DNA of 4,087 bases, taken from IMG/VR virus record IMGVR_UViG_2534681764_000006, positions 1-4,087 of that record; one strand, 5' to 3'. The notes under the pieces are model-generated. The model was not told where the DNA came from. It ran no database searches and was given only the letters and a program-made list of their open reading frames with translations. Each line of letters starts with the position of its first letter. Within the stretch, counting starts at the first letter, position 1. This DNA is from a virus (taxonomy: Duplodnaviria > Heunggongvirae > Uroviricota > Caudoviricetes). Position numbers and translations under genes: made by a program. Below are positions 1 to 4,087 of the stretch, piece after piece.

Positions 1-162
1 GATAACATCCCACTTCGAACCATAACCGCGCTGATGACGGGATTGTCCTGGCTTGTATTGCTTCCAGCCTTCGCTTTTGTGGCTTTCGCAGTAGCCTGAC
101 GGGTCTGTCGTGGTATTACGGCAGCCGCGAACGCGGCAGGCTTTTGGAGTTCGAGGGGGCAT
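1..162 (-). CDS. HNH endonuclease, N-terminal 54 codons only; the gene continues beyond the left edge of the window
   Basis: Minus-strand ATG at 162..160 preceded by AGGA about 8 nt upstream; open to position 1. Translation MPPRTPKACRVRGCRNTTTDPSGYCESHKSEGWKQYKPGQSRHQRGYGSKWDVI shows the Cys-x2-Cys / GYC-x2-H / RGYG-x2-W pattern typical of phage HNH endonucleases found next to terminase genes. Not in the supplied ORF track because it is truncated by the window edge. Confidence 0.75.
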   Translation of the reverse strand, partial: MPPRTPKACRVRGCRNTTTDPSGYCESHKSEGWKQYKPGQSRHQRGYGSKWDVI

Positions 163-188
163 AAATATATTCCTGTTCTTTATCCGGA

Positions 189-461
189 CTATTTGACTGC
201 TGCCAGCAAAGCGTTACGGCGCATCTCGATACTTCGAATCCCCGCTTTGTCAATATTGCATTGTCCCAACGCCGAAAGCAGGCTCACATTCAGATCCAGA
301 CTGGCCCCATAGGTCAGCGGCTCGGGAATGACTGGCTGGGGAGTTTCAGTAGTCAGGCTTGCTGGCAACGGTACCGCCGGAATCGGTACGTAAACTGTTC
401 GCGTACTTCCGCAACCGGTCAGCAGCGGCAGCAGGCACATGACGTGAAGCACAATCATCAT
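189..461 (-). CDS. o-spanin (Rz1-like outer-membrane lipoprotein), starting inside the Rz gene in the +1 frame and extending past the Rz stop
   Basis: Within track ORF 189..713, Met85/Met86 (ATG at 461..459 and 458..456) begin MMIVLHVMCLLPLLTGC, a signal peptide with lipobox LTGC. The mature part is proline-rich (CGSTRTVYVPIPAVPLPASLTTETPQPVIPEPL...) and has a C-terminal Cys. The ORF part upstream of Met85 overlaps Rz out of frame and is probably not translated. The start codon is uncertain: the SD is weak, and in-frame CTG/TTG codons lie just upstream. Confidence 0.5.
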   Translation of the reverse strand: MMIVLHVMCLLPLLTGCGSTRTVYVPIPAVPLPASLTTETPQPVIPEPLTYGASLDLNVSLLSALGQCNIDKAGIRSIEMRRNALLAAVK

Positions 462-738
462 CCGCAACAGCCACTTTGATATCTTCCTGGGTTCTCTGTG
501 ACTCCAGTGCGATCTGCTGTTTTGCATGCTGGTTAGCCTCCAGAACTGTATTGACGATTTGCAGTGATTGCAGAACGTTACGGGTAATGGCAGTTGCTGA
601 TTCAGCATTTCGTACAGCCTCATCAGCACGCTCCTTTTCGTGCTGATATTTGCTGTAGTAATGCCCGGCAGACCAGATGAAGGAACCAATGACGGTAACA
701 ACGAAGGCAACAATAACCAGCTTATATCTCAGCTTCAT
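346..738 (-). CDS. i-spanin (Rz-like, N-terminal TMD plus coiled-coil periplasmic domain); not the lambda Rz sequence family
   Basis: ATG at 738..736 with GGTGGGG 7 nt upstream; the start overlaps the last 17 nt of the endolysin gene. N-terminus MKLRYKLVIVAFVVTVIGSFIW is a single TMD, followed by a charged Q/E/A-rich helical region and a C-terminal Cys. The position directly after the endolysin, with an embedded +1-frame lipoprotein ORF, fits a spanin. Confidence 0.7.
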   Translation of the reverse strand: MKLRYKLVIVAFVVTVIGSFIWSAGHYYSKYQHEKERADEAVRNAESATAITRNVLQSLQIVNTVLEANQHAKQQIALESQRTQEDIKVAVADDDCASRHVPAAAADRLRKYANSLRTDSGGTVASKPDY

Positions 739-1198
739 TTACTACCCCACCAGCTTTTTTAAATCGGGCAATCAGGTCACCGATTTTATGTTCATACTGA
801 CCGTAACCTGCACCAGGTAACGACGCCCAGATATTGCTGCAACGGTCGATTGCCTGACGAATACTGCCGCGGTCAATCATCGGTAAAGCACCACGCTCTT
901 TAATCTGCTGCAGAGCTACAGCGTCCTGGCTTTCTGGAGAAAAATCTTTCAGGCCAAGCTGTTTACGGTAAGCATCCCACCAGCGTGAAAGAAGCTGGTA
1001 ACGTCCGGCGGCTGTTGATTTGAGTTTGGGGTTTAGCGTGACAAGTTTGCGAGGGTGATCGGAGTAATCAGTGAACAGTTCGCCACCAACAATAACATCA
1101 TAACCGTGGTTTCTGGTTTTCTGCCGTCCGTTATCTGTTCCTTCTGACCATGCCACCATATCAAGGAAAGCTTTACGCTGGGAATTAAGTGTCTGCAT
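722..1198 (-). CDS. R: Endolysin, lambda R-type lytic transglycosylase
   Basis: 158-aa translation MQTLNSQRKAFLDMVAWSEGTDNGRQKTRNHGYDVIVGGELFTDYSDHPRKLVTLNPKLKSTAAGRYQLL... is nearly colinear with phage lambda R as I recall it, including the AWSEGTD segment that holds the catalytic Glu. ATG at 1198..1196 with AAGGAG about 6 nt upstream, embedded in the last holin codons. Identity was not checked by search. Confidence 0.93.
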   Translation of the reverse strand: MQTLNSQRKAFLDMVAWSEGTDNGRQKTRNHGYDVIVGGELFTDYSDHPRKLVTLNPKLKSTAAGRYQLLSRWWDAYRKQLGLKDFSPESQDAVALQQIKERGALPMIDRGSIRQAIDRCSNIWASLPGAGYGQYEHKIGDLIARFKKAGGVVNEAEI

Positions 1199-1201
1199 TA
1201 A

Positions 1202-1561
1202 TTACTCCTTATGGGCACCGAACTTGTTACCGATTACTCGCATTGCCGCCCCACGAATAGCATCAACACCAATCAGCCCCACCCCACCACCAATGGCAAC
1301 AGAAAGCGATTTAGGCCATCCGACATACTCAAGAGCGGATGCAAAGGTCAGCGTCAGAGCGCCACATAGCAAAATCTCGAGCGTTTTTCGCTTCCAGCCA
1401 CCACCACCGCCAAAATAGGCGATGCGCAAACCAGCCATAACGATCGACATAATCACTGCACCCAGCGGAGTGTCTCCACGCCACCAGCTCTGAAACAACT
1501 CCAGCCAGTCCGGCCAAGTATTTGGGTTATGAGGCATTTCATCATCTCTCACCTCGCACAT
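1202..1561 (-). CDS. Holin, three predicted TMDs (class I, lambda S-like topology); possible dual start at Met1 (1561) and Met9 (1537)
   Basis: Three hydrophobic segments (LGAVIMSIVMAGLRIAYF, LEILLCGALTLTFASALEYVGW, LSVAIGGGVGLIGVDAI) and a charged C-terminal tail (RGAAMRVIGNKFGAHKE). Sits immediately upstream of the endolysin with a 3-nt gap (stop TAA at 1204..1202). Two in-frame ATGs lie 8 codons apart; GAGGTGA lies between them, 13 nt upstream of the second. Confidence 0.85.
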   Translation of the reverse strand: MCEVRDDEMPHNPNTWPDWLELFQSWWRGDTPLGAVIMSIVMAGLRIAYFGGGGGWKRKTLEILLCGALTLTFASALEYVGWPKSLSVAIGGGVGLIGVDAIRGAAMRVIGNKFGAHKE

Positions 1562-1582
1562 ATCGCGGGTGCAAATTGAGGG

Positions 1583-1621
1583 AATAAAAAATCCCCGAAT
1601 ATTCCAGGAGCGGAAACGGGG
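1583..1621 (-). terminator. Terminator-like or leader structure about 20 nt upstream of the holin start (two-tier hairpin plus U-tract)
   Basis: Minus-strand RNA CCCCG-U-UUCC-GCUCCU-GGAA-UAUU-CGGGG followed by AUUUUUUAUU. The outer 5-bp GC stem encloses an inner 4-bp stem; the loop is large, so terminator efficiency is uncertain. It could instead be a structure controlling holin translation. Confidence 0.3.
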
Positions 1622-1657
1622 AAAGGCGTTGCACTAATTGGGCCTGTCTGCGGCCTT

Positions 1658-1685
1658 AAATAAAAAACCCCGGCAAATGCCGAGG
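1658..1685 (-). terminator. Rho-independent terminator in the late leader (candidate tR')
   Basis: Minus-strand RNA CCUCGGC-AUUU-GCCGGGG followed by UUUUUUAUUU: a 7-bp stem with one G.U pair, a 4-nt loop and a U6 tract. The G.U pair would be a C/A mismatch on the plus strand, so the structure is specific to the minus strand. Confidence 0.65.
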
Positions 1686-1905
1686 TCAGTTAATCGTTGC
1701 CGCTGTGAGTGCCGCGGCGCACTATCTCTTTATCAGGCCACTTACGCGTTAAACCGGGTGCTAACCGTAACTCAGTGATGCTTTACGCTTCCTCTCCCTC
1801 ACTACGTCGCAATTGGAGCCCGGCCAGATTAACGCTGTCGTCACGTTGCCAATATATGGCATCCAATGCATTCTTTTTATTTAGCTATTTCATTTTTCTA
1901 TCCGT

Positions 1906-1937
1906 CAGAAACAACAAAACCCGCTCAATGGCGGGTT
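1906..1937 (-). terminator. Rho-independent terminator about 85 nt downstream of the Q-like gene stop (candidate tR' or early-transcript terminator)
   Basis: Minus-strand RNA AACCCGC-CAUUGA-GCGGGUU followed by UUGUUGUUUCUG: a 7-bp stem, a 6-nt loop and a U-rich tail. Confidence 0.6.
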
Positions 1938-1939
1938 CT

Positions 1940-2024
1940 GGTAAAGTTCATGCGCTTGATTCGCCTCGCGATACAGCTTTGCGAAGCGTACCGGAATTGA
2001 AGCAGTTTATGCGTAAAAAATCAA
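1940..2024 (-). promoter_or_regulatory. Candidate late promoter (pR'-like) and Q-engagement region immediately downstream of the Q-like gene
   Basis: On the minus strand, TTGATT (2024..2019, overlapping the TGA stop), a 17-nt spacer, then TTCAAT (2001..1996). The -10 hexamer is weak, so this is positional inference from lambdoid architecture (Q, then pR'/qut, then tR', then the lysis genes). Confidence 0.25.
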
Positions 2025-2563
2025 GATATTTTTTGAGCAAATGATTCTCGCATGGGAATATATAGGACATACTCAGCAACAGCCAACCAATTAGCAATTC
2101 GCTTTTCGCATGTGCTAAAACACCACTCAGGATGTGCATCATTTAGCAATTCAGCCATTTTGCGCTTAGTCATCCCCCGCCCCTCATACCGTTGCCGAAG
2201 GATGCTAATCAATCCAGGATGCTCTGCCAACACCTCACTTATGACCCGATCAATACATAACGCCTCTGCATCAGTACAATGCGCCAGCCAGCTCTTTTGC
2301 TTACCGTTAATCATATCCCGCAAAAAAGCCTCAAGTTCAGACTTGTTCAGACCTGCTTTTTTCATCCTCCGGAGCGCCTCGTTAATTGCCGTTTTTGTCA
2401 GCTTTTTAGAGGTCAACATCAGGTTAAACATATTCCCCGTCTTACCGCCACCAATATACGACCAGCGCCCCCACATGCGCAGTTTTCCCTGAATCCAGAC
2501 ACTTTCCAGCGTGGTGAGACTAAGGTGTTCCCCGCTTTTGCCTGTATTTGTTGGGTAAATCAT
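2021..2563 (-). CDS. Putative late-gene antiterminator (Q-family-like), 180 aa; family assignment tentative
   Basis: ATG at 2563..2561 with AGGAAGG about 7 nt upstream, overlapping the upstream stop as ATGA. The track ORF 2021..2683 has a spurious N-terminal extension into the upstream gene. The N-terminal segment LESVWIQGKLRMWGRWS resembles the LERWGAW motif I recall in Q21-type antiterminators. The C-terminal ISILRQRYEGRGMTKRKMAELL looks like a helix-turn-helix. Position between the nin-type genes and a terminator-laden leader before the holin fits Q. Confidence 0.6.
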   Translation of the reverse strand: MIYPTNTGKSGEHLSLTTLESVWIQGKLRMWGRWSYIGGGKTGNMFNLMLTSKKLTKTAINEALRRMKKAGLNKSELEAFLRDMINGKQKSWLAHCTDAEALCIDRVISEVLAEHPGLISILRQRYEGRGMTKRKMAELLNDAHPEWCFSTCEKRIANWLAVAEYVLYIPMRESFAQKIS

Positions 2564-2850
2564 AAATAACCTTCCTTTCTCCAGATTTCTTGTGTGCGAA
2601 AAACACCTTCTGCATGCATCAGGCGTAATTCTTCTTTGGTGTAATCGCTGGTTTTTACCCGCCCGTCGATTAAATCGTGGCATGAGCTACAGGCAATCGC
2701 TGCCTGCATATCGTGTGGTTTTGTCGCTGTTCCGCACGTCCCCGCCAGCCTGTAATGCGCCAGCACAGAAGTTTCGGGATTGTGATTGCAGTAGCCAGGA
2801 ATTCTGACGGTGCACATCTGCCCCCGCGCCGCTTTACGTAAATCCACCAT
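2560..2850 (-). CDS. YbcO-like / DUF1364 Cys-rich putative zinc-binding nuclease (nin-region protein)
   Basis: 96-aa translation MVDLRKAARGQMCTVRIPGYCNHNPETSVLAHYRLAGTCGTATKPHDMQAAIACSSCHDLIDG... matches, in length and in the DLRKAARG / VRIPG.CN.NPETSVLAH / CGT.TKP / IACS.CHD blocks, my recollection of E. coli DLP12 YbcO. ATG at 2850..2848 overlaps the upstream stop as TAATG. Confidence 0.85.
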   Translation of the reverse strand: MVDLRKAARGQMCTVRIPGYCNHNPETSVLAHYRLAGTCGTATKPHDMQAAIACSSCHDLIDGRVKTSDYTKEELRLMHAEGVFRTQEIWRKEGYL

Positions 2851-3449
2851 TACGCAAACTCCAGTAACTGCGCGGCCACATTTTCGACTTCCTCCGGAGA
2901 GGAAAATTTACGGAACAGGATCCAGTTCCACAACACATTCAGTACAGATTTATAAACCTGCTGAAACACGGTTTCGTCCATGTTCGCAAATGCGATAGAT
3001 TTTGCCCTGCGCCCACGACTACCATCAGGATAAATATGCTCGGTGTAAAATCCGGCCTGAATGGTTACCCACTCGCGGAAAGCGTCAAACGACTTTAGCA
3101 ATGCCGTATCCCGGGTTCTGCATGTCGCAACGGTATTAAGGTATTGCTCTGCGGCATCACTCAGGGCTGGAGTGTGTTCCCGACCTACTGATTCGCACAG
3201 GTAATCAACGAAGCCCGATACCAGTTTTCGTTCGCGAGGCGTGATCGCCCCACCGACCGGAGTCCAGTAATCGAATCCCAGTTGCAGGAGTTTGAAAAAA
3301 CGCTTGTGGAATGCGTAGTTACGCACACGCTTAAAGTCTGCGTGTATCCACTCACCTATTTTGATTTGATGCAAAAAATCGCAACTCTCCGGCGTCGCCG
3401 GGAGAAGTAATCCGGAAGAGGTTTGTTTGACCAGTTGTATATGCGCCAT
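2850..3449 (-). CDS. Conserved prophage protein, DUF1367-like, 199 aa, function unknown
   Basis: ATG at 3449..3447 with GGAG 7 nt upstream; uninterrupted 199-codon frame whose stop is coupled to the next gene. The size and position just upstream of a DUF1364 gene match the DUF1367 family as I recall it; this is not verified. Confidence 0.8.
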   Translation of the reverse strand: MAHIQLVKQTSSGLLLPATPESCDFLHQIKIGEWIHADFKRVRNYAFHKRFFKLLQLGFDYWTPVGGAITPRERKLVSGFVDYLCESVGREHTPALSDAAEQYLNTVATCRTRDTALLKSFDAFREWVTIQAGFYTEHIYPDGSRGRRAKSIAFANMDETVFQQVYKSVLNVLWNWILFRKFSSPEEVENVAAQLLEFA

Positions 3450-3496
3450 CGTAGTTCTCCGCTGGCGCAGTAGAATGGGTGTTCAGCCCGTTATGT

Positions 3497-3505
3497 AGTA
3501 TACCA
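3497..3505 (-). promoter_or_regulatory. Candidate extended -10 element (TGgTATACT) about 45 nt upstream of the DUF1367-like start
   Basis: Minus-strand sequence TGGTATACT fits the TGnTATAAT extended -10 pattern. There is no well-spaced -35. Sequence motif only. Confidence 0.2.
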
Positions 3506-3520
3506 GAATTAATGCCAATA

Positions 3521-3733
3521 CTAACAGGATGCTCTGACTCGCAATTCATCCAGCAGTTTATCATTTCCCATAATGTCACTTACCCTCATCGGTAAAAAAA
3601 TTGCCTTTCGACCATTACGATACATCATTGATTTTGGGATTTCAGGGAAGTAATCCATTTCGACTATAACTGACAGGTCATCACGACGTATGACTGCGTA
3701 TTTGCTACTAAATAGTTTCTTTATTTTTTCCAC
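3521..3733 (-). CDS. Small hypothetical protein (about 70 aa) in an AT-rich moron-like insert; probable GTG start
   Basis: The track ORF 3521..3772 begins at a GTG with no SD. An in-frame GTG at 3733..3731 is preceded by CCTGGAGG with a 4-nt spacer, giving (M)EKIKKLFSSKYAVIRRDDLSVIVEMDYFPEIPKSMMYRNGRKAIFLPMRVSDIMGNDKLLDELRVRASC. No TMD and no family that I recognise. The region is visibly more AT-rich than the flanking genes. Confidence 0.45.
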   Translation of the reverse strand: MEKIKKLFSSKYAVIRRDDLSVIVEMDYFPEIPKSMMYRNGRKAIFLPMRVSDIMGNDKLLDELRVRASC

Positions 3734-3813
3734 GATGCCTCCAGGTTTATAAGTACAAAAGGTTATATCCACATAGAGACAAAAATATTAATCTGAAAAA
3801 TATTTATTTCACG

Positions 3814-3886
3814 CCATATATTTGATTATTTAATGTGCAGGTACAATGACTTTTATTTTGTGTTGTGTATATAATCAAATATATGG
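3814..3886. repeat. Perfect 16-bp inverted repeat pair with a 41-bp AT-rich spacer, upstream of the small ORF
   Basis: Plus strand 3814..3829 CCATATATTTGATTAT and 3871..3886 ATAATCAAATATATGG are exact reverse complements. A consensus TATAAT at 3870..3875 on the plus strand lies inside the right arm. Confidence 0.9.
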
Positions 3887-3915
3887 TTATTTTTCACCCT
3901 GCGTATTCAGCGCGC

Positions 3916-3940
3916 AACAAAAAACCCGCCGAAACGGGTT
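3916..3940 (-). terminator. Rho-independent terminator after the upstream gene (nin-region tR-type terminator)
   Basis: Minus-strand RNA AACCCG-UUUCGG-CGGGUU followed by UUUUGUUG: a GC-rich stem with a U-tract, about 70 nt downstream of the stop codon at 4011..4009. Confidence 0.6.
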
Positions 3941-3979
3941 AAGCGCGGGTGCGTTGAGGATGCCTGACTCATCAGAGGT

Positions 3980-4001
3980 GGCGAGGGATTTCTCCCTCGC
4001 C
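3980..4001. other. Stable 9-bp stem-loop (GGCGAGGGA-loop-TCCCTCGCC) with no U-tract, 8 nt downstream of the upstream gene's stop
   Basis: Plus 3980..3988 GGCGAGGGA pairs perfectly with 3993..4001 TCCCTCGCC across a 4-nt loop. It lies in the 3' UTR of the minus-strand gene, upstream of the terminator. Confidence 0.5.
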
Positions 4002-4008
4002 TAGTCTC

Positions 4009-4087
4009 TTACTCCTCAGGTTCGTAAGCTGTGAAGACAGCGACCTCCGTCTGGCCGGTTCGGATTCGTACCTCGCAGAGGTCTTTC
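4009..4087 (-). CDS. 3' end of an upstream minus-strand gene (last 25 codons plus stop); identity unknown, possibly a nin-region gene
   Basis: The frame with codons starting at 4086 reads ...KDLCEVRIRTGQTEVAVFTAYEPEE then TAA at 4011..4009, using common codons. The other two minus frames are rich in rare AGG/AGA/CGA codons. The C-terminal pattern loosely resembles RusA-type resolvase C-termini, but 25 residues are too few to assign. Confidence 0.45.
   Translation of the reverse strand, partial: KDLCEVRIRTGQTEVAVFTAYEPEE

Follow-up and report, generated by a model that had tools for sequence, protein, structure and literature searches.

A DUF1133 protein of a Rac-like prophage as a probable divergent member of the phage 21 Q antiterminator superfamily

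A Q protein acts as a switch: with it, RNA polymerase passes terminators and reaches the lysis genes of a prophage. In a stretch of 4,087 nucleotides of tailed-phage DNA (IMG/VR record IMGVR_UViG_2534681764_000006, positions 1 to 4,087; hereafter, the window), a minus-strand gene for a protein of 180 amino acids (aa), called the target below, occupies the place of such a switch, and the question is what kind of regulator it encodes. A first inspection of the sequence (the original prediction) had recognized the Q position, which was borne out: the gene lies after the DUF1367 and YbcO genes and before a leader and the holin, endolysin and Rz/Rz1 genes. That inspection had left the choice between a divergent Q family and a different kind of late activator; the analysis presented here favours a divergent Q of the phage 21 (Q21) type, and a different activator is retained as a minor rival. 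The target is very probably the late antiterminator (Q) of a lambdoid prophage of Rac-like type and a divergent member of the Q21 superfamily carrying the Pfam label DUF1133, as suggested by sequence comparison, a structural model and analogy with Q21. The Q assignment of DUF1133 is not new at the annotation level, as phage records annotate close homologues of the target as Q and an HHpred-based 'Q antiterminator' label has been published (PMC8136144). New here are the quantitative evidence of homology to Q21, the coordinates of the predicted promoter, pause element and terminators, and, besides a table that pairs helices with sites, three architectural differences from Q21.

Homology to Q21 in sequence profile and predicted fold

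The target, which begins with MIYPTNTGKSGE and ends with AQKIS, matched Pfam DUF1133 (PF06576) at E 1.5e-105 (350.6 bits, cutoff 23.1), and its residues 1-175 covered positions 1-175 of the 176 in the profile, as in a full-length member. It also scored 27.9 bits (gathering score 26) on PF06530, which was equated with the Q21 family by Yin et al., and was assigned by PHROGs to "anti-termination protein Q-like" families; no model of NCBIfam matched the protein. In the reverse direction, Q21 reached 22 bits on the DUF1133 profile (cutoff 23.1), and its relative P0192, 84% identical to Q21, scored 33.8 bits, above that cutoff. Moreover, most Q21 relatives carry precomputed Pfam matches to both families, and some of them bear the NCBI name "DUF1133 family protein". 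When a DUF1133 profile of 42 sequences was compared with all PDB sequences, only Q21 chains were found (E 4.4e-9; next match E 0.19), and the alignment ran through two collinear stretches, in which residues 13-40 correspond to Q21 5-32 and residues 95-178 to Q21 57-152. The hhalign comparison of DUF1133 with the Q21 family (33 relatives) gave a probability of 98.3% and E 1.3e-14 over 133 columns, spanning target residues 13-178 and Q21 5-152. A single-sequence phmmer search of the PDB with the target returned only a marginal Q21 match (E 0.16), and a family profile was therefore required. DUF1133 representatives fall into 66 clusters at 50% identity, of which few are full length, and because the family is so compact an exhaustive search of representatives gave little added depth.

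The original prediction had proposed that the Q-family and sigma-70 region 4 profiles be searched, and of these the Q21 family was matched, while the Pfam families of lambda Q and Q82 and the Pfam sigma-factor domains gave no match to the target at E<=0.1. The early remark that the protein does not resemble lambda Q agrees with this outcome. The combination of region 2 and region 4 (matches to Sigma70_r2 and r4) that marks a member of the sigma-70/extracytoplasmic function (ECF) group was not found in the target.

The structure was predicted with AlphaFold2 (AF2) without templates, on the basis of a 105-sequence alignment of DUF1133, Q21-type and QuuD-type proteins in which the anchor motifs line up. 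The model reached a predicted TM-score (pTM) of 0.60, with a predicted local distance difference test (pLDDT) of 84-95 for residues 18-38 and 96-177; a first run with 42 DUF1133 sequences only (pLDDT 55, pTM 0.29) was discarded. The Q21 structures date from 2019, later than the AF2 training set. In the Foldseek comparison with the PDB, which carried out the earlier suggestion of a comparison with solved Q structures, the top 12 matches were Q21 chains (E 8e-5 to 7e-3, TM-score 0.64-0.73 on the target), and after them nothing fell below E 1.8. The model showed an N-terminal Trp-rich helix (H1) packed on a sigma-region-4-like (sigma-R4-like) helical domain with a helix-turn-helix, which is the arrangement of the Q21 fold, where H1 is packed on a sigma-R4-like four-helix domain. 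Homology of the target to Q21 was thus shown in both sequence profile and predicted fold.

The modelled H1 corresponds to H1 of Q21, a helix packed against the sigma-R4-like domain and in contact with the beta' dock. Residues 23-39 form the W/G/R-rich motif WIQGKLRMWGRWSYIGG, earlier described as reminiscent of Q21, which proved to be real and aligns with Q21 residues 15-31 (WLNGWLELWGAWVYSG). The helix-turn-helix that had been suspected at the C-terminus, of sigma region-4 type, was also recovered in the model. Its first helix comprises residues 133-143 and is followed by a short turn and a recognition helix (149-165) that bears S150, T151, C152, E153 and K154; the segment ISILRQRYEGRGMTKRKMAELL (residues 119-140) covers the preceding helix and the first helix of the motif. 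Both Q21 structure papers noted that the Q21 fold resembles an ECF sigma region 4 bound to an anti-sigma helix. A sigma-R4-like helix-turn-helix is therefore a hallmark of the Q21 fold and argues for Q21 membership, not against it. As a rival reading, the target might be a conventional late-promoter activator, that is, a sigma-R4-like or LuxR-like DNA binder or sigma appropriator that would be bound between -35 and -10 and boost initiation, with elongation left unmodified. The likeness of the target to the ECF sigma region 4 (sigma-E R4, PDB 2H27) and to AlpA of Pseudomonas aeruginosa (7XYB) was limited to 60-100 residues, with a Z much lower than that to Q21, and the target has neither a region 2 nor a Pfam sigma match. 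Such an activator was considered highly improbable.

The functional residues were mapped from the Q21 complexes of Shi et al. (PMC6606751). The dock contact W26 of Q21 (PMC6606751) corresponds to W34 of the target and is conserved, as are the DNA-phosphate contacts S93, K94 and T125, which correspond to T132, K133 and T151. The base contacts H95, A124, R127 and R128 are changed to R134, S150, E153 and K154, and the residues of the flap-tip-helix groove, I83 and I97, correspond to I121 and M136. Between H1 and the sigma-R4-like domain lies a basic segment (residues 37-95) of 59 aa with a net charge of +8, which contains three short predicted helices. The Q21 H1-H3 (torus) segment has 29 aa and a charge of +3, half the length of that in the target, and the QuuD segment has 28 aa. 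Judged by position only, this segment may correspond to the part of Q21 that is refolded as a torus at the RNA exit channel.

Compared with the reference Q21 (PDB 6P18, 6P19, 6P1A-C, 6JNX, 6JNY; Pfam PF06530), the target is ~16-20% identical. Q21 possesses an HT[loop]H with a 13-residue minor-groove loop L3 (R113), whereas the helix-turn-helix of the target has a short turn instead. The QuuD/Q933W-type antiterminators, at the core of PF06530, belong to this superfamily as well and share with the target the WG-W helix, the C-x-D-D-D motif, the Y-x-x-G and the short-turn helix-turn-helix. The sequence used for QuuD reached 179 bits on PF06530, and a comparison at 99% identity verified that it is QuuD. 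As QuuD-type members of PF06530 also lack L3, this loop defines the Q21 subfamily and not the superfamily. The QuuD type differs from DUF1133 in being shorter (120-145 aa), Cys-rich (QCCDDDAMIICGCM, HCCSD) and devoid of an insertion, while DUF1133 has 4 Cys and a 30-aa insertion. In the target, Cys occurs only at positions 96, 103, 148 and 152, and no zinc-ribbon-like pattern or CxxC pair was found. The original prediction was right that a Cys-rich zinc motif is absent, but erred in expecting it of Q21, because the zinc ribbon belongs to lambda Q and Cys-richness to QuuD. Lambda Q (PF03589) is monomeric when bound and depends on NusA for the formation of its nozzle (PMC9388147). It has the gene position and the proposed job of the target; its binding site, too, lies inside pR', and it works with a sigma-dependent pause and a nozzle mechanism. 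Its fold, which comprises a zinc ribbon and a canonical helix-turn-helix, is unrelated, and its profile gave no match. The Q82 family (PF06323; PMC9388147), which includes AntQ of Gifsy-1, likewise contains late antiterminators at a matching genome position, but no profile match to the target was obtained.

Predicted late promoter and helix-site pairing

To place the cis elements, 31 Enterobacterales genome loci and a number of phage records (30-96% protein identity; ~35 loci in all) were aligned on a shared TAnGCT motif with the fully annotated late region of phage 21. A -35, a spacer, a -10 and a pause-like element were found at matching positions in the ~35 loci and in phage 21. The -35 (TTGnnn) lies 34-36 nt upstream of TAnGCT and overlaps or adjoins the Q stop codon, the spacer measures 16-18 bp, and ~5 nt separate the -10 hexamer from TAnGCT. 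In the phage 21 annotation, the sigma-dependent pause element TAAGCTG stands directly after the start site. The corresponding predicted elements of the window are listed in Table 1; the place of its -10 is taken in other loci by TTCAAT, TTGAAT or TTAAAT. The sequence downstream of the target thus contains, as predictions, all the parts of a Q21-type system: a late promoter, an internal binding element, a pause element and a terminator.

TAnGCT was present at the pause position in 30 of the 34 DUF1133 loci scanned, although in two Rac-type loci of those 30 the regular expression had matched the TAAGCT of the stop codon and the element at the pause position is TAAGAT. In 80 close viral contigs, the -35, the -10 and the T, A, G, C and T of TAnGCT were almost fixed, while its third base and the 5-nt linker varied, which is the pattern expected of a -10-like element; for TAnGCT this was likewise seen over 85 close loci. 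The viral-contig scan comprised 90-96% relatives only; it served for footprinting, and no new classes were found in it. One locus (L016) was without a recognisable promoter. In the 192-aa homologues of Klebsiella/Enterobacter type, the -35 and the spacer are contained in the last 12 Q codons, and the C-terminal peptide of these proteins (L005, L015, L017-L036) reads ...SEPE... (GTGAGCC) or ...SCAE... (GTTGCGCG), following the site class; their tail appears to be dictated by the overlapping DNA site. The sole match of a promoter scan, TTGGCT-18-TATATT (2086-2057, inside the Q coding region), was set aside because it falls on conserved WLAVAEYVLYIP codons and occurs at chance frequency (1 found, 1.0 expected).

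The same elements may be read in another way, by which the target would still be a Q21-type antiterminator, while TAnGCT (1990-1985) would be the true -10, TTGATT/TTCAAT would not form a promoter and the pause would be caused by AAAGCT (1980-1975). TACGCT does fit the three most important -10 positions (T, A and the final T) better than TTCAAT; in addition, the Klebsiella-type TAGGCT is preceded by TGn in the manner of an extended -10 (TGATAGGCT), and another conserved -10-like sequence, AAAGCT/GAAGCT, follows 4-5 nt downstream in several classes. However, phage 21, in which the start and the pause were annotated from experiments, has its TAAGCTG directly after the start, and its spacing matches the loci base-for-base, with the -35 at -34 to -36 from TAnGCT. 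Moreover, the window contains no -35-like hexamer 16-18 bp upstream of TACGCT, and the class-specific subsite would fall at -45 to -38, outside the promoter. This alternative layout was judged improbable, and the promoter at TTGATT/TTCAAT with a pause at TACGCT was preferred.

Within the promoter so placed, the first 8 bp of the spacer fall into five classes, and these follow the residues that correspond to the base contacts of Q21 (Table 2). In phage 21, the subsite 1 at this position binds the nozzle-forming protomer. The pairing of the (I/M)TCRRR class is that of Q21 itself (TCRRE with TGAGCA), and its recurrence in proteins ~20% identical to Q21 is the strongest single point of the analysis. 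Each pairing was seen with 2-4 unrelated downstream leaders. The second half of the spacer (ATAAACTGC in the window) neither covaries with the helix nor repeats the first half; its TG stands where an extended -10 would have it. The spacer and the leader were also examined for another copy of the class-specific subsite in direct or inverted orientation, and none was consistent across classes. In Q21 the subsite TGAGCA is directly repeated and the two copies are occupied by two protomers, whereas in the target's predicted element (TTTTACGC) no direct repeat was seen and only the first 8 bp are class-specific.

Table 2. Recognition helices of DUF1133 proteins and the spacer subsites with which they occur.
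Helix	Subsite	Occurrence
(I/M)TCRRR	A(A/G)TGAGC(A/C)	12 loci
RTCE(S/T/N)R	TTGCGCG	9 loci
STCEKR	T(T/C)TTACG(C/T); TTTTACGC in the window	window, close relatives and Rac: 6 loci + 80 contigs
RT(Y/H)Q(D/N)R	TTACCG	Providencia and Edwardsiella phages
RTCCSR	CAATCTG/CAATTAC	3 loci

Several observations weigh against the assignment of the target as a Q21-type antiterminator and have to be set beside this evidence. As the AF2 alignment included Q21-family sequences, the model is not independent of the sequence homology. The supposed nozzle segment, at twice the length of that in Q21, was modelled at a pLDDT of only 44-58, and the alignments by hidden Markov model and by MAFFT differ on which of its helices equals Q21 H2. 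The loop L3 is absent, as HMMER, hhalign and MAFFT all align Q21 103-117 with a gap of 13 residues, and the C-terminal tail by which Q21 touches the alpha/beta interface, ~10 residues longer there, is missing from the target. On the DNA side, the promoter, start site and pause element are predictions from sequence, and the -10 hexamer TTCAAT is weak, with no A at -11. The helix codons lie ~100 bp from the site on one DNA, so that co-inheritance contributes to the covariation, and one locus (L019) is a misfit, combining a TCRRR helix with a CCTGCACC site. Finally, no experimental work on any DUF1133 protein was found in the literature searched.

Gene neighbourhood, leader RNA and terminators

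All genes of the window lie on the minus strand (Table 1). The open reading frame (ORF) of the target extends over 2021..2683 in the ORF list of the window, and the 180-aa protein begins at the ATG at 2563. This ATG is preceded by a GGAAGG Shine-Dalgarno sequence and overlaps the TGA of the upstream YbcO gene (ATGA, 2563-2560), and it was taken as the true start because all full-length homologues begin with MI(Y/N/H)P. The DUF1367 and YbcO genes (2560..3449) are translationally coupled to Q, and the order DUF1367-YbcO-target recurs in Rac-type prophages. Rac-like prophages of numerous E. coli genomes, as well as sequenced phages of E. coli, contain near-identical DNA; RefSeq names the homologues of the target there "DUF1133 family protein", and the depositors of phage records call them "antitermination protein Q". 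The assignments of the lysis genes (346..1561) are also backed by the annotations of these records, and these would be the late genes that the predicted antiterminator switches on.

Table 1. Annotated and predicted features of the window.
Feature	Position	Strand	Evidence or remark
Target gene, predicted Q-type late antiterminator, 180 aa, Pfam DUF1133, probable divergent member of the Q21 superfamily	2021..2563	-	
H1, Trp-rich helix, residues 18-38 (W23, W31, G32, W34, Y36)	2450..2512	-	pLDDT ~84
Expanded basic segment, residues 37-95, from H1 to the conserved C-x-D motif	2279..2455	-	
Sigma-region-4-like helical domain, residues 96-177, equivalent of Q21 H3-H6	2033..2278	-	
Helix-turn-helix, residues 132-165	2069..2170	-	
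Predicted -35 TTGATT of pR', overlapping the Q stop TGA (2023-2021)	2019..2024	-	position common to DUF1133 loci and phage 21; no variation among 80 close viral contigs
Predicted spacer TTTTACGCATAAACTGC, 17 bp	2018-2002	-	
Candidate Q-binding subsite TTTTACGC, first half of spacer	2011..2018	-	position of subsite 1 of the phage 21 Q-binding element
Second half of spacer, ATAAACTGC	2002..2010	-	RRAAAsTGC, similar in all classes
Predicted -10 TTCAAT	1996..2001	-	17 bp from -35
Predicted sigma-dependent pause element, -10-like TACGCT	1985..1990	-	
Second -10-like AAAGCT	1980-1975	-	
5' stem-loop of predicted leader RNA (CGCUUCGC / GCGAGGCG)	1962..1988	-	
First intrinsic terminator (tR'-like), 10-bp GC-rich stem + UUUUGUUGUUU	1905..1940	-	terminator scan
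Second intrinsic terminator, before the holin gene	1656..1687	-	scan, -15.4 kcal/mol, z -4.35
Non-coding leader, 460 nt, between target and holin		-	
hokD, last codons ...KDLCEVRIRTGQTEVAVFTAYEPEE and stop	4087-4017	-	
83-aa ORF, function unknown	3521-3772	-	phrog_1813 only
DUF1367 gene	3449-2850	-	PF07105 E 4.8e-97
YbcO nuclease-like gene	2850-2560	-	PF07102 E 1.4e-45
Lambda-family holin	1561-1202	-	TIGR01594 E 1.5e-37, PF05106
Lambda-R-like endolysin	1198-722	-	phrog_90 E 4e-63
Rz with embedded Rz1	738-346	-	

The predicted leader begins with a stem-loop whose 5' arm overlaps the pause-like TACGCT. The 87-nt leader fold that includes this stem-loop reached -30.4 kcal/mol (z -2.9), and two compensatory changes were observed in it among 85 close loci, namely C-G to U-A in 2 contigs and the A of TAAGCT paired with a G-to-U change in 5 contigs. 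The stem-loop might stabilise the 5' end or interplay with pausing or Q loading. The first terminator folds at -16.2 kcal/mol (z -4.1; 0/200 shuffles fold as well), and a terminator is located 40-90 nt past the promoter in nearly all loci. A third terminator-like hairpin (1609-1593) was rejected, as it folds no better than shuffles. In most DUF1133 loci (L007, L009, L010, L017, L018, L020, L022-L036) the leader closes with the stem of the first terminator (AACCCGCC...GCGGGTT), the loops being variable, and this extends to leaders that are otherwise unrelated. An identical hairpin occurs in Edwardsiella phage EPP-1, which has a Q of only 30% identity.

In the ~225 nt between the two strong leader terminators (1690-1915), no ORF, tRNA or Rfam match was detected. 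The equivalent slot holds tRNA genes in phage 21 and in Klebsiella phage KpF5 and the pertussis-like toxin genes eplBA in phage Rac-SA53, and the interval looks like the usual site of cargo insertion downstream of Q, empty here.

In a Rac-type setting, the target might instead be a decaying and inactive remnant of a cryptic prophage, or a promiscuous factor acting on host transcription as does AntQ of Gifsy-1. Rac-type prophages are often defective, and AntQ, the one prophage Q shown to disturb host termination, acts on host genes when overproduced (PMC4825925). On the other side, the ORF is intact and 90-96% identical in the 80 viral contigs and in sequenced phage records, the cis elements are conserved, the lysis cassette downstream is intact, and AntQ is Q82-like, not DUF1133. 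A remnant or a promiscuous factor is thus hardly credible, and a functional antiterminator of the prophage's own late genes is the favoured explanation. AntQ had been considered as a possible tested DUF1133 protein because of a weak isrK match in the window and a similar operon length, and was rejected, since the annotation of Gifsy-1 STM2617 is Q82-like and a tblastn search with the target did not detect it. The isrK match of Rfam (3919-4000, minus strand, past hokD) reached 26.9 bits (E 0.006), below the gathering score of 50, and it is probably merely the GC-rich terminator AACCCGTTTCGGCGGGTTTTTT that ends the hok mRNA; IsrK of Gifsy-1 itself lies downstream of the Q82-like antQ and not of a DUF1133 gene. 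In the window as a whole, no tRNA was found, and no Rfam match exceeded the gathering score of any family.

Among the remaining genes, the 83-aa ORF between hokD and DUF1367 had no Pfam or NCBIfam family match and occupies the 'rem' position of the Rac and Qin prophages. Translation of the holin ORF could begin in frame at M1 (1561, MCEVRDDEM...) or at M9 (1537, MPHNPNTW...), and its RefSeq homologue is annotated from the second start (111 aa). The arrangement might be a dual start of the lambda S kind, giving holin and antiholin, in which the extension would be unusually long and acidic.

Proposed mechanism and significance for DUF1133 prophages

On the basis of the homology and the fold shown above, and by analogy with the solved Q21 complexes, a mechanism can be proposed for the target. 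Transcription would be initiated at a late promoter on the target's own stop codon (-35 TTGATT, 2024-2019; 17-bp spacer; -10 TTCAAT, 2001-1996). RNA polymerase would start near 1989-1991 and then pause at TACGCT (1990-1985), because sigma region 2 would re-bind this -10-like sequence. The recognition helix (S150-T151-C152-E153-K154) would bind the spacer subsite TTTTACGC (2018-2011) beside the RNA exit channel, H1 would dock on the beta' dock, and the basic 59-residue segment (37-95) may refold into or around the exit channel as a nozzle. The polymerase so modified would ignore both leader terminators (1940-1915 and 1687-1666), and the holin, endolysin and Rz/Rz1 genes and the genes beyond would be transcribed. 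A bolder extension, tentative and rather doubtful at present, is that a single protomer acts at a single subsite and that the conserved, strongly basic insertion of 30 residues replaces the second protomer and L3 or enlarges the nozzle. DUF1133 would then represent a third architecture of the Q21 fold, with a readable code between residues 153/154 and 8 bp. The pairing table and the predicted cis elements make specificity swaps straightforward, such as E153K154 to RR and S150 to I/M combined with the subsite AGTGAGCC.

DUF1133 proteins are encoded by a large share of the prophages of E. coli, Shigella, Salmonella, Klebsiella and Citrobacter. DUF1133 prophage fragments of enterobacterial type were also met under a Saccharibacteria label (L014, Candidatus Nanosynbacter metagenome-assembled genome, 93% identity) and a Firmicutes label (L019, Vagococcus sp. 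assembly, 55% identity), most likely as a result of contamination or mis-binning. Some DUF1133 phages carry LT-II, pertussis-like or Shiga toxins just downstream of Q. The three differences from Q21 inferred here, namely the doubled nozzle segment, the absence of the minor-groove loop and the single subsite, bear on what the nozzle mechanism may tolerate.

Summarizing, the target is very probably an ordinary late regulator that has been hidden under the label of a "domain of unknown function", and its RefSeq name is still "DUF1133 family protein". Its placement in the Q21 superfamily justifies the renaming of DUF1133 and supplies a proposed mechanism for the expression of late genes and toxins in DUF1133 prophages.

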